DNA of 64,000 nt from an uncultured Gammaproteobacteria bacterium (GTDB taxonomy: Bacteria; Patescibacteriota; Patescibacteriia; Magasanikbacterales; GWA2-37-8), in the NCBI GenBank assembly GCA_964407865.1, contig CAYOXC010000002.1, forward strand, positions 38,978 through 102,977, written 5' to 3'. The notes beneath the pieces were generated by a model, which saw nothing but the letters and a program-made list of their open reading frames with translations, was not told the DNA's origin and did not search any database. Positions 11,904-43,052 of the stretch are shown piece after piece (within the stretch, counting starts at the first letter, position 1; each line of letters opens with the position of its first letter). A program made the translations under genes and the position numbers.

Positions 11904-12653
11904 ATGACTATTTTGTTGTGGATTATCGCTACAAATTTAATAATAAGCTTAATCTCATTAGTTGGTGTGTTCACTTTAAGTTTAAAAGAGGCGCTTTTGG
12001 GCAAAATTCTTATGCGGCTAGTCGCTCTTTCTTCGGGGGCCCTTTTAGGTGGAGCTTTTTTACATTTAATACCTGAAGGCATTGAAAAACTTGAGATAAA
12101 GACTTTTTTTATATTTGTACTTATTACAATTTTACTTTTTTTATTAATAGAAAAAGTACTTCATTGGCGTCATTGTCATAAAGGCGCAACTTGCGATGTC
12201 CACAAATCGATGGGGTATGTAAATTTAATCGGTGATGCGGTACATAATTTTATCGACGGGCTTGTTATTGCTGCTGCTTTTGTAGTCGATTTACGACTTG
12301 GCCTGATAACCGCCGTGGCTATTTGTCTGCATGAAATTCCGCAGGAAATAGGTGATTTTGGCGTTCTTGTTTATTCCGGTTTTTCCAAAAAAAAAGCTTT
12401 ATTGTTTAATTTATTGTCTGCGTTAATGGCAGTAGTTGGAGGAATTGTGGGATGGATTGCCGCACAATATTCAAGCGGCATAGAATCTTATTTGTTGCCA
12501 GTGGCGGCTGGCGGATTTATTTATATAGCTACATGTGATTTATTGCCTGAATTGAGAAAAAATATTAGCATAAAGAGTTTCTTTTATGATTATATAATAT
12601 TACTTGTGGGTATTTCTTTGATATTCTTTATAAGTTTATTGGAATTACATTAA
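11904..12653 (+). CDS. ZIP family metal (zinc) transporter
   Basis: HNFIDGLVIAAAF and HEIPQEIGDF signature helices. Start set at the internal ATG after the patatin stop. Confidence 0.75.
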   Translation: MTILLWIIATNLIISLISLVGVFTLSLKEALLGKILMRLVALSSGALLGGAFLHLIPEGIEKLEIKTFFIFVLITILLFLLIEKVLHWRHCHKGATCDVHKSMGYVNLIGDAVHNFIDGLVIAAAFVVDLRLGLITAVAICLHEIPQEIGDFGVLVYSGFSKKKALLFNLLSALMAVVGGIVGWIAAQYSSGIESYLLPVAAGGFIYIATCDLLPELRKNISIKSFFYDYIILLVGISLIFFISLLELH

Positions 12654-12741
12654 GAAAATAATTTTTTATTTTTTCAATTATTTTAGCCGCTTTAACAGGC
12701 GGCTTTTTAACTTGATTTCTTTGAGAAAATATGCTAAAATA

Positions 12742-12828
12742 GCGAAAAATTGGAAGGGTGGCTGAGTGGTCTAAAGCGACAGTCTTGAAAACTGTTGTGT
12801 CAGAAATGGCACCGTGGGTTCGAATCCC
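12742..12828 (+). tRNA. tRNA-Ser (UGA), long variable arm
   Basis: Acceptor GGAAGGG/CCCTTCC, anticodon loop CUUGAAA, T-arm GTGGG-TTCGAAT-CCCAC. Confidence 0.85.
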
Positions 12829-13158
12829 ACCCCTTCCGCATAAAAATCGTGTCCCATTTATGGGGTTAGATTTTTACGGAATGCGTGGTGATGAAGAACC
12901 CTGATGGTTCGTTCGGCGCAGTGAGTGAGAAAAGAATAAATTTATTTATTCTTTCGAGCGAGCAAGCCGACTCTGCGCGAAGCGCAGTATCCCACCCCTT
13001 CCGCATAAAAATCGTGTCCCATTTATGGGGTTAGATTTTTACGGAATGCGTGGTGATGAAGAACCCTGATGGTTCGTTCGGCGCAGTGAGTGAGAAAAGA
13101 ATAAATTTATTTATTCTTTCGAGCGAGCAAGCCGACTCTGCGCGAAGCGCAGTATCCC
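12829..13158. repeat. Two tandem 165-bp direct repeats, each ending in a 15-nt copy of the tRNA-Ser(UGA) 3' end
   Basis: ATCCCACCCCTTCCG recurs at 12814-12828 (tRNA), 12979-12993 and 13144-13158. The units are identical. Confidence 0.9.
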
Positions 13159-13255
13159 ACCCCTTCCGCCAATTTTTAGAATTCGGATTTTGGGCTATTG
13201 TTGCCTTGCCTCGTCAGAGGTAAGTAAGGGTTAGCGGCATGGCTATCGACCCCGG

Positions 13256-13343
13256 TAGTTAGAGCGGAGGGGTGGCTCGAGCGGTTGAAGGCGTCGCTCT
13301 CGAAAAGCGATAGATCAGCAATGGTCTCGCGAGTTCGAATCTC
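13256..13343 (+). tRNA. tRNA-Ser (CGA), long variable arm
   Basis: Acceptor GGAGGGG/CCCCTCC, anticodon loop CUCGAAA, T-loop TTCGAAT. Confidence 0.8.
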
Positions 13344-13502
13344 GCCCCCTCCGCCCTACTACAGGGAAAGTAAGCTTTAAGAATTGTTGCCAATATAGGT
13401 AACTAGACTTTGTGAGGGAAAATTGTCTCCAATAGTTACGCTTTGCCCTGTTCAACAGGGTGATTTTATTATATGATAAAAATATATATTTAATTTAAAT
13501 TT

Positions 13503-16853: not shown

Positions 16854-17249
16854 TTAGAACTTAAAATAATCTCCGAATTGTCCAATAAGCGGCAATTTTT
16901 CCTGTTTACCATTGGCGGCGTTGACTATACCGATGATGGCAAAAACAAGAATAGCTAAACCAACCAGATTAAACAACCAATAAAGCTTCCAGAGCCAAAA
17001 CCAAGGAATAAACATTCTTACTATCCAGAGAATAACGGCTAACGAAAAAATGACAGCGCCTTGTTTAACATGAAATTTAACAAAGGGGTCTTTTTTTGCA
17101 TCAGTTAAAAGCGGGATAAAAAATAAAATATAAGCAACGATAGCCATACCCGTATTTGGCTGATTGCTTGCCGGTGGTTGCGCCTGTGGCGGTTGTTGCG
17201 GTTGCGCCTGTGGCGGTTGTTGCGGTTGTTGCTCGTTGTCCATAAGCAA
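16854..17249 (-). CDS. Small membrane protein with an N-terminal Gln/Pro-rich tandem repeat
   Basis: QPQQPPQAQP occurs twice, encoded by a 27-bp DNA tandem repeat; 3 TM helices. Confidence 0.45.
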   Translation of the reverse strand: MLMDNEQQPQQPPQAQPQQPPQAQPPASNQPNTGMAIVAYILFFIPLLTDAKKDPFVKFHVKQGAVIFSLAVILWIVRMFIPWFWLWKLYWLFNLVGLAILVFAIIGIVNAANGKQEKLPLIGQFGDYFKF

Positions 17250-42209: not shown

Positions 42210-43052
42210 ATGAATGAAAGTCATCGCTTTCCCAGCCAGGATCCGATGGTTAAATTGCGACAAGAGATGAAACTACGCAATTTTAGCCAAAAAACCATCA
42301 AGAGTTACCTGTATTATATTGGCGATTGCCTTAAAAAGTCAAATAAACAAGCGCGCATGATCAGCGGTAGCGATGTGCGCAACTATCTTGAGAGTTTGGC
42401 TGATTCCGGCATGTCTTCTTCGACATTAAATATCGCGCATAGCGCCCTTCGATTTTATTTTCAAATTATTTTGCGTCGGAAGTTTTTTTCTGATATTCCG
42501 CGGGCGTGCAAAGAAAAACATTTGCCTGCCGTATTATCCAAAGAAGAAGTGGTAAAAATGGTTTTGTCACTAAAAAATCCAAAGCATAACTGCATTTTAT
42601 CTTTATTGTATGGCACAGGGGTTAGGGTGAGCGAACTAACCCATATTAAAATGCGAGATATTGATTTTGATAGGAGTGTACTGCGCGTATTTCAGGGTAA
42701 GGGCAAGAAAGACCGGTTCACACTTTTGCCGAAATCGCTTAGAGAGGTTTTGTTAAAACAAAGAAATTTAAAAAAACCTGGTGATTATTTATTTACAAAT
42801 GGTCGTGGCGGGCGATTGACAGAGGCGACAATCCAGAAGATTGCGAGGTTAGCCGCAAAGCGAGCTGGTATTCAAAAAAATGTTACACCTCATACATTGC
42901 GGCACAGTTTTGCTACGCATTTGCTTGAAAATGGTACAGATATCAGGTATATTCAAGAATTATTAGGGCATGCCAAACTTCAAACCACGCAGATATATAC
43001 TCATGTGGCAAATAATGATTTAAAACATATTACCAGTCCGTTAGATTTATGA
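42210..43052 (+). CDS. Tyrosine site-specific recombinase (XerC/XerD/phage-integrase family), 280 aa
   Basis: N-terminal SAM-like core-binding domain. Catalytic R (GVRVSEL), K (GKGKKDR), HxxR (HTLRHSF), H (LLGH) and Y (IYTHV). Confidence 0.85.
   Translation: MNESHRFPSQDPMVKLRQEMKLRNFSQKTIKSYLYYIGDCLKKSNKQARMISGSDVRNYLESLADSGMSSSTLNIAHSALRFYFQIILRRKFFSDIPRACKEKHLPAVLSKEEVVKMVLSLKNPKHNCILSLLYGTGVRVSELTHIKMRDIDFDRSVLRVFQGKGKKDRFTLLPKSLREVLLKQRNLKKPGDYLFTNGRGGRLTEATIQKIARLAAKRAGIQKNVTPHTLRHSFATHLLENGTDIRYIQELLGHAKLQTTQIYTHVANNDLKHITSPLDL

Follow-up and report, generated by a model that had tools for sequence, protein, structure and literature searches.

Tandem units behind tRNA-Ser(UGA) in a Patescibacteria genome as a probable divergent member of the TLR/RtT family

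In a 64,000-nucleotide stretch of a Patescibacteria genome (contig CAYOXC010000002.1; hereafter the window), the gene for tRNA-Ser(UGA) is followed by two tandem units that each carry a copy of the tRNA 3' end. We conclude that these Ser units are probably a divergent, hitherto unannotated member of the family of tRNA-linked repeats (TLRs), also called RtT RNA, a term (TLR) that the literature searched uses only for E. coli and its relatives. The assignment draws on the architecture of the array, its position in a tRNA operon, a predicted fold and a helix matched to the host tRNA. The original prediction, made from the DNA letters, had proposed a family of miniature tRNA-targeting elements; a single family linked to tRNA 3' ends and with further copies was indeed recovered, but it is one that was already known.

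ARAGORN identified five tRNA genes in the window, including tRNA-Ser(UGA) on the forward strand. Tandem Repeats Finder located an array at 12824-13169 with a period of 165, 2.1 copies, 100% matches and 0 indels, bearing out the two identical 165-bp units of the original prediction. The block common to the tRNA and the units, ATCCCACCCCTTCCGC, corresponds to the last 16 nt of the tRNA gene (12824-12839), one more than the 15 nt first counted, and its three copies begin at 12824, 12989 and 13154. It spans A59 to G73 plus a C, and identity begins after TTCGA within the T-loop, at the break already noted. The GC-rich hairpin CTGCGC-GAA-GCGCAG was likewise found in both units, and related metagenome units carry the same hairpin type at the same position. 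On the forward strand a promoter-like site, tRNA-Ser(UGA), the two units and tRNA-Ser(CGA) follow one another, the last of these lying 95 nt past the array with no promoter-like site in between. The tRNA-Ser(UGA) gene as it stands does not encode CCA: the distal copy of its 3' end (13154-13172) is followed by CCA, CCGCCAATTT, and the copy within the functional gene (12824-12842) by CAT.

The Ser insertion is real and not a product of assembly. Genes flanking the array are present in the Logan assemblies of all three runs, SRR14492171, SRR14492172 and SRR14492173, and contigs reaching the repeat were obtained from two of the three. One of these contigs stops 14 nt into the element just after the tRNA; another, L001, starts in the last 14 nt of the Ser core and runs through the third 16-nt copy into native downstream DNA. 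Such breaks are the expected behaviour of de Bruijn assemblers at repeats. Both outer junctions thus recur in independent assemblies and establish the insertion, while the unit number of two comes from the window assembly alone. An expanded or wrongly joined repeat might be suspected from the perfect identity of the copies and from short-read contigs that break in the repeat, but it is extremely unlikely given the recurring junctions and a layout that finished E. coli genomes and 59 unrelated contigs also show.

The E. coli tyrT operon provides the reference for this architecture. In K-12, Tandem Repeats Finder placed a 178-bp unit 3.1 times after tyrV, and one more unit lies between tyrT and tyrV. 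These units end in AATCCTTCCCCCACCACCA with the junction TTCGA|ATCC and give four matches of 133-137 bits to the Rfam RtT model RF00391; the locus is annotated rttR and tpr, the latter a 29-aa open reading frame (ORF) within the unit. Copy number varies, with 0 to 4 RtT copies annotated at tyrT among the rows listed of 5,426 genomes. The tyrT operon repeats (TLR, RtT RNA; gene rttR) reportedly go back to work by Egan and Landy in 1978 and by Rudd in 1999. According to Stenum et al. (PMC8144298), following the definition of Rudd 1999, TLRs lie in a tRNA or rRNA operon, directly downstream of a stable-RNA gene and on the same strand; their hallmark is a 3'-terminal stretch of 18-19 bp that exactly repeats the 3' terminus of the tRNA or 5S gene upstream, and K-12 has 22 of them at ten loci, with one to five per locus. 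The window units also lie in a tRNA operon, directly downstream of a tRNA and on its strand. Their 3' ends are identical to that of the upstream tRNA over 16 nt (Ser), 19 nt (Pro) and 21-41 nt (Ala), and the loci hold two, two and one units, respectively. The Ser block is shorter than its E. coli counterpart because CCA is not part of the repeated copies.

One topology is common to the minimum free energy (MFE) folds of all units compared, from the window (Ser, Pro and Ala), from E. coli RtT and from metagenome contig L055: the 3'-end copy pairs with a 5' segment in a long-range helix (P1) that encloses two or three hairpins. The Ser unit folds at -48.9 kcal/mol with a z-score of -4.47, compared with z-scores of -3.68 for Pro and -2.34 for Ala. 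Its 5' segment, GGAAUGC-GUGGUGAU, is predicted to form P1 with the 3'-end copy: GUGG(U)GAU pairs with AUCCCAC, and a further five of seven positions pair between GGAAUGC and CCCUUCC. Enclosed by P1 are a short hairpin closed by GAAC/GUUC and following GAUGA(A)GAAC, a variable hairpin and a G+C hairpin whose loop is GAA.

The 5' strand of P1 changes with the host tRNA. The predicted pairings are GGGGAAGGAU with AUCCUUCCCC for Tyr, GUGGGAU with AUCCCAC for Ser, CGGGAU with AUCCCG for Glu(CUC) in a four-unit array of L055, GCGUCAGGAUUU with AAGUCCUGUCGC for the window Pro units (11 of 12 positions paired) and GGGGAU with AUCCCC for the window Ala unit. In a model-fitted alignment, which leans to the structure and by design consists almost wholly of rows with the Ser end, one P1 pair is UA in 41 rows, AU in 4 and CG in 4, its neighbour is GC in 45 and AU in 4, and G-U pairs occur on the tRNA-sense strand. 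Covariation support for RtT, including a helix framing a tandem GA, has been published by Rivas (PMC8250186). The Ser 5' strand GGAAUGC-GUGGUG resembles the 5' acceptor strand of the tRNA, GGAAGGG, joined to the 5' strand of its T-stem, GUGGG. In the predicted fold, P1 looks like an acceptor/T-arm minihelix in which the T-loop is replaced by three hairpins.

A covariance model, R1, was built from 22 metagenome and 4 E. coli units, with no window sequence among them (P1 10 pairs, P2 4 pairs), and used to search the 64-kb window with filters off. The two top hits were the two Ser units, both full length at 24.3 bits (E ~3e-4), and the Ala unit came fourth (15.6 bits, E 0.036). In the alignment of the Ser unit, GCGUGGuGAU stands opposite AUCCCACCCC and the motif GAUGaAGAAC-hairpin-GGUUCG is matched. 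The motif count supports the assignment independently: of four GATGARRAAC-type matches in 128 kb searched, three immediately follow the P1 strand in the Ser and Ala units. GAUGAAGAAC and the P2 hairpin of the Ser unit would correspond to the RtT motif GAUGAGAAC...GGUUCGA. With regard to the tandem-GA motif, the Ser unit has GAUGAAGAAC and the hairpin GAACC/GGUUC, but the next two nucleotides are GU instead of the expected GA; in the Pro and Ala units a different hairpin comes after GAUUUGAAC and GAUGAGAAC.

Several observations weigh against the assignment. RF00391 (gathering score 45) gave no match at E <= 10 in 12600-13500 and 5750-6750, and on the window no Rfam family matched the cores of either locus; RF00391 is blind to the window units because their primary sequence is unrelated to E. 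coli RtT. The tRNA T-arm alone reaches 18.5 bits under R1, which leaves the Ser units a margin of ~6 bits, a weak test when taken by itself, and R1 was built on units that share the same 15-nt end as the Ser units. The Pro units ranked sixth and seventh at 9.3 bits (E ~1.1), which is not significant. When the window cores were compared by blastn and nhmmer with all fetched loci, no similarity was seen beyond short motifs, the best outcome being a 22-nt motif with L029, L052 and L058 at E 0.44. A weak terminator-like hairpin opens each Ser unit (stems at 12851-12866 and 13016-13031, with a T-rich tail) and could limit read-through. In addition, the tRNA-linked TLRs are without known function (PMC8144298).

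Other known systems were considered for the motifs and rejected. On the strength of GAUGA, GA/GA and GTTC targets, the units might be read as a hammerhead, a box C/D RNA, a K-turn, an integron attC site or an IS200/IS605 or IS91 element. These readings were dropped because either the core consensus or the missing target duplication speaks against them, and there was no Rfam ribozyme match.

Three of the five tRNA genes in the 64-kb window carry such structures, as had been predicted, and together they have five units: two at Ser, two at Pro and one at Ala (Table 1). The Ser block is 16 nt, the Pro block 19 nt and the Ala block 21-41 nt long. The 41-nt duplicated Ala block (6424-6464 and 6572-6612, one mismatch) spans CCA and most of a downstream 9-bp hairpin; its distal copy has a G-to-A change at tRNA position 68, which would break the C5-G68 pair. 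On the reverse strand the order is a promoter-like site, tRNA-Ala, one unit, tRNA-Phe, tRNA-Pro, two units and a terminator. Judged from sequence, both operon layouts would fit co-transcription of the units. The Pro and Ala units have a 94-nt core in common, with one mismatch, and their flanks on both sides are tRNA-specific. The Ser core was correctly described as unlike this core, but the AGTGAGA-type motifs thought to be common to both are at chance level: the local alignment score was 18, against 15.8 +/- 2.3 for shuffled sequences. The near-equal periods of 165 and 166 bp, which had been taken as a link, also look coincidental, as related units range from ~74 to 181 nt.

Table 1. Coordinates of the tRNA-linked units and associated features in the window.
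Feature	Position	Strand	Evidence
RtT-like RNA module, unit 1, predicted; P1 closing three hairpins	12874..13003	+	R1 24.3 bits; MFE fold
RtT-like RNA module, unit 2, predicted	13039..13168	+	R1 24.3 bits
tRNA-Ser(UGA), intact	12752..12839	+	ARAGORN; Rfam tRNA model 64.7 bits
Ser unit 1: 16-nt tRNA 3' end, then 149-nt core	12824..12988	+	Tandem Repeats Finder register
Ser unit 2, identical to unit 1	12989..13153	+	Tandem Repeats Finder
Third copy of tRNA-Ser 3' end, then CCA and native downstream DNA	13154..13169	+	
Promoter-like site 5' of tRNA-Ser(UGA), TTGATT-17-TAAAAT with upstream TG	12712..12740	+	Consensus match only, 9/12
Terminator-like hairpin directly 3' of tRNA-Ser 3' end; again in unit 2 at 13008-13040	12843..12875	+	Fold
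P1 5' strand GGAAUGCGUGGUGAU, complementary to AUCCCACCCCUUCC; again at 13043-13057	12878..12892	+	
GAUGAAGAAC motif and P2 hairpin GAACC-CUGAU-GGUUC; again at 13055-13075	12890..12910	+	
A+T-rich long variable hairpin CGGC...GCCG; again at 13079-13134	12914..12969	+	Fold
Terminal G+C hairpin CTGCGC-GAA-GCGCAG, GAA triloop, 1 nt before 3'-end copy; again at 13138-13152	12973..12987	+	
Pro array: two 166-bp units downstream of tRNA-Pro (6224-6298), 19-nt block CAAGTCCTGTCGCCCCGAC	5892..6242	-	Tandem Repeats Finder, 2.1 copies
Ala unit: single 148-bp unit downstream of tRNA-Ala (6590-6665)	6424..6612	-	
Strong intrinsic terminator directly after last Pro unit	5858..5885	-	
Promoter-like site before tRNA-Ala	6730-6703	-	11/12 matches

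On the reverse strand, the core common to Pro and Ala begins with GGATTTGAACGTCGGAGCGATG in the Pro units (6000-6021 and 6166-6187) and with GGATGAGAACGTCGGAGCGATG in the Ala unit (6541-6562). This start resembles GGATTTGAAAGCCGGAGCGCTG in the tRNA-Ser(GGA)-linked units of L029, L052 and L058, with 86% identity over 22 nt to the Pro form (the match of E 0.44 above); the three contigs have 39% G+C, and the T-loop of their tRNA reads TTCAAAT. Immediately 5' of tRNA-Ala, a T-loop-like fragment, GTTCAAATC at 6677-6685 on the forward strand, reads GATTTGAAC on the reverse strand and may be a leftover of another unit or a chance match.

A gapped search of metagenome contigs for the tRNA-Ser 15-mer repeated 125-155 nt later returned 59 loci with a displaced copy and the same layout at tRNA-Ser. 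Nearly all of them have a single intact tRNA-Ser (anticodon CGA, UGA, GGA or GCU), the second 15-mer being the displaced 3' end. At several, three to five units form an array, and some of these arrays include short units of ~80 nt. The order of elements in the core is regular: CCA, often a hairpin, and a segment complementary to the tRNA 3' end come first; (A/U)UGAGAAC or AUUCGAAC, a hairpin closed by GAAC/GUUC and then GA follow; and several G+C hairpins with GAA, GCA or GGA loops precede the 3'-end copy. The loci range from 34% to 65% G+C. An ORF of L008 exactly matches a protein named from Elusimicrobiales, and one of L043 falls in a cluster with members named from Terrimicrobiaceae. RF00391 scored 66.1 bits on units of L028 and L020, above its gathering score of 45, and 39.5 and 33.2 bits on L063 and L055, respectively.

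Exact scans with a Ser 26-mer and a Pro/Ala 22-mer gave no match in the genome or viral contig collections, and a protein search for further copies with the ORFs that cross the units found none. A viral scan with GGATGAGAACN{3,20}GTTCGA yielded at least 120 matches; all 80 fetched loci were chance matches, and none passed R1.

Two kinds of array deserve separate mention. Contig L055 has two four-unit arrays with related cores, one at tRNA-Ser(CGA) (2859-3505, forward strand) and one at tRNA-Glu(CUC) (5103-5669, reverse strand), and the 5' strand fits each tRNA (GUGGGAU for Ser, CGGGAU for Glu); a 405-aa phage-type integrase ORF lies at 1547-2764 on the reverse strand, just 5' of its tRNA-Ser. 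Short units of ~75-85 nt occur in arrays of L017, L021, L015, L024 and L009/L048/L063. They are without the GAUGAGAAC motif and its hairpin but retain the acceptor-strand complement GAGGAGGGG and the terminal GCA- or GAA-loop hairpin. Long units alternate with short ones in L009 and L048, where the spacings are 84, 145, 74, 139 and 80 nt.

The original prediction had also suggested that the units are possibly mobilised in trans by a tyrosine recombinase such as the one at 42210, for which we found no support. The protein encoded at 42210-43052 contains Phage_integrase and SAM-like domains and scores 250.8 bits on the NCBIfam XerA-type equivalog NF040815 (cutoff 220). It has thousands of homologues; the best 120 listed are 61-77% identical, and the named ones among them come from Candidatus Magasanikbacteria, Uhrbacteria and other Patescibacteria. 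The gene sits between HIT and SpoU-methylase genes, with a DJ-1 gene also among its neighbours. By these sequence features it is the housekeeping Xer of the lineage and not the integrase of an element. No dedicated integrase was found within the window, where this XerA-type gene, 29 kb from the Ser array, is the sole recombinase.

The broader form of that idea is that the units are miniature integrative elements, bounded by attachment (att) sites, and that a tyrosine integrase supplied in trans inserts and excises them and stacks them in tandem. Cis-mobilisable elements (CIMEs) are of this kind, being att-bounded and moved by the integrase of a related integrative and conjugative element (Pavlovic 2004, Bellanger 2011). 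The perfect tandem doublets at two window loci would fit such an origin, as would the phage-type integrase beside tRNA-Ser in L055 and the broken one beside the array in L021. The identity block coincides with the segment from the T-loop to the 3' end, where att sites in tRNA genes classically lie (Williams 2002). This segment is also used by real integrated elements in related contigs, and in L043 and L011 the first block abuts unrelated DNA. Against this stands the structure of the sites themselves: the internal 3'-end copies are preceded by GCGCAGT (Ser; ...GCGCAGU or ...GGAUA among the units) and not by GTGGGTTCGA, leaving a right-hand arm only. Because the internal copies are without the left half of the T-arm, full att sites of the CIME type are not present, and the blocks are half sites at best. 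Tyrosine recombinase matches were found near just 2 of the 59 loci (intact in L055, broken in L021) with a hidden Markov model made from 120 Xer homologues, whose sensitivity for distant integrases is limited. Moreover, a single fold with a tRNA-matched 5' strand extends from E. coli to the candidate phyla radiation (CPR), which remnants of att sites would not need, and TLRs are found after 5S rRNA genes too (PMC8144298). With only a housekeeping XerA-type gene in the window, and that 29 kb away, we judge this origin decidedly unlikely.

At L043 (7037-7286), and also at L011, L034, L053 and L062, the first tRNA-Ser 3'-end copy abuts unrelated DNA (...CACCGA|ATCCC). The first block in these five is next to neither a tRNA nor a unit, there is no tRNA in the fetched stretch, and in L043 a TrbI/VirB10 gene lies ~3.6 kb upstream of the block. 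A large integrated element may have come to lie between tRNA-Ser and its repeat array at such loci; in that case one stretch of the tRNA is used by both repeat arrays and integrative elements.

Another origin would be plain decayed duplication: a tRNA gene and its spacer were copied in tandem, the 5' parts of the extra copies decayed, and only pseudo-tRNA remnants without function were left. The tRNA-like 5' strand of P1 (GGAAUGC-GUGGUG in the window compared with GGAAGGG...GUGGG in the tRNA; GGGAAGGAGGGGUGGGGUUCGAAC in L009) is what such remnants would look like, and so is the disabling G-to-A change in the distal Ala copy. Yet motifs foreign to tRNA, namely GAUGAGAAC, the GAAC/GUUC-closed hairpin and the hairpins with GNA loops, recur across phyla and tRNAs, folding z-scores reach down to -4.5, and covariation has been published for Rfam RtT (PMC8250186). 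Decayed duplication may account for the origin of the family but not for its persistence, and as the full explanation it is unlikely.

We favour, instead of remnants or integrative elements, a reading in which each unit would be a trailer or spacer module of the tRNA operon, closing with a repeat of the upstream tRNA's 3' end. P1 together with the free discriminator end would imitate a tRNA acceptor/T-arm minihelix; because of this imitation, transcription from the tRNA promoter may run on through the units, and the enzymes that process tRNA ends, recognising P1, would excise them, as reported for the E. coli rtT RNA and the 5S-linked RrB. For the 5S-linked members, read-through, processing and binding to Hfq and CsrA are described, and the repeat has been proposed as a processing signal (PMC8144298). 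The same paper records that the stringent-response claim for rtT RNA (Bösl & Kersten 1991) was retracted in 1994, and that claim is not used here. Unit number would shift by unequal recombination or by slippage between the repeated 3'-end blocks, and unequal recombination explains the variation of 0-4 copies in E. coli equally well. The near-identity between units, and between the Pro and Ala cores, could stem from recent duplication or gene conversion, and conversion limited to the homologous core would leave Pro and Ala with one core despite different flanks.

The same Pro/Ala pattern, a 94-nt core with one mismatch set between tRNA-specific flanks on both sides, may also be read as the trace of a self-copying element of an undescribed kind, which would install itself behind stable-RNA genes with the last ~18 nt of the host RNA as primer or guide, or by way of a folded single-stranded DNA hairpin that mimics its target. 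Counted from the mature 3' end, the block measures 16-21 nt in the window and 18-19 bp in E. coli, at 5S genes too, which would agree with this, and nearly all hairpin loops are GNA triloops closed by C-G. Such C-G-closed GNA triloops have extra stability in DNA. No candidate enzyme lies nearby, though, and gene conversion of the core is a simpler account of the Pro/Ala pattern. In a mobilome preprint the tyrT-rttR region is enriched in exonuclease-resistant DNA under stress, but its authors claim no circles there. Overall we hold a self-copying element, for which the evidence is indirect throughout, to be very unlikely. Some form of copying of units to different tRNAs may still have taken place. 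A bolder possibility is that TLR/RtT units are no peculiarity of enterobacteria but tRNA-minihelix mimics in distant groups (Patescibacteria, E. coli and the contigs with Elusimicrobiales-like and Terrimicrobiaceae-like proteins), installed behind stable-RNA genes by a templated copying mechanism that would use the last 16-21 nt of the host RNA. If true, this would explain nearly identical cores with tRNA-matched flanks, both at Pro/Ala and at Ser/Glu in L055; we regard it as doubtful.

A few further features of the window were recorded. The Rfam model sX4 (RF02223, a proteobacterial small RNA) gave a sub-threshold match at 12738-12893, with 30.5 bits against a gathering score of 70, and further sub-threshold matches of up to 43.1 bits in L045, L064 and L028, which cover tRNA-Ser and ~55 nt of trailer; a tRNA-Ser gene may be part of the sX4 model. 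ORFs of 49-82 aa run across the units at 12885-13034, 13050-13223, 5856-6216 and 6398-6571, for example MVMKNPDGSFGAV... in each Ser unit and ...NVGAMFGELTGEPNRETVARPNERKRV... common to the Pro and Ala cores. They have no homologues in the protein collection searched and are probably spurious. A short tandem repeat with periods of 9 and 24 at 17172-17232, inside an ORF at 16854-17249 on the reverse strand, is unrelated to the units.

For the window alone, the result is mainly a correct annotation, with the mobile-element reading unsupported. TLRs have been known for ~45 years, and their architecture is much more widespread than the Rfam RtT model detects, with five units in 64 kb of a small CPR genome and dozens of related arrays. 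This broad distribution, combined with a 5' strand that co-varies with the host tRNA, provides material for comparative analysis, and it cautions against taking such duplications of tRNA 3' ends for scars of integrative elements. The interest lies in the breadth of the family and in its unexplained spread between tRNAs.

Among known systems, CIMEs resemble the window units in having direct repeats of a tRNA 3' end around a cargo-less segment, tandem accretion and no recombinase of their own. They differ in being kilobases long, with full att sites on both sides and a known partner integrase, whereas the window units have internal half sites, no partner that was found and a conserved fold as their interior. 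The tRNA minihelix and the tRNA-like domain of transfer-messenger RNA (tmRNA) share with the units an end-to-end helix of the acceptor-plus-T-stem type, a free discriminator end and, in place of the T-loop, a large insertion; unlike in a minihelix, the helix of the Ser unit is mismatched, with five of seven acceptor-like positions paired, and the likeness to tRNA-like modules comes from the predicted fold only. The 5S-linked TLRs RrA, RrB and RrF are also stable-RNA operon trailers, whose last 18 bp repeat the 3' end of the preceding gene; they lie between or behind terminators and are read through and processed (PMC8144298). Their linkage to 5S rRNA, their GGA motifs and their binding of Hfq and CsrA set them apart, and the window units give no hint of such traits. 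The closest parallel is with E. coli tyrT RtT. The window differs from it in its hosts, which are Ser, Pro and Ala tRNAs in a Patescibacteria genome, in a 16-nt Ser block whose repeated copies do not encode CCA, and in a unit with an A+T-rich hairpin in the middle, no CCC-GNA-GGG hairpin and a terminator-like hairpin at its start. In common with tyrT RtT, the units share the strand and the operon of the tRNA gene that they directly follow, and they form tandem arrays of units ending in the tRNA 3' end (3.14 copies of 178 bp in E. coli, 2.1 copies of 165 bp in the window), with the same T-loop junction (TTCGA|AUCC), a P1 complement and the same predicted topology. Both appear to have a GAUGAGAAC-type motif, a hairpin closed by GAAC/GUUC and G+C hairpins with GNA loops before the 3' end, and the order of the window operon resembles that of E. 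coli, where tyrT, one unit, tyrV and three units follow in turn.

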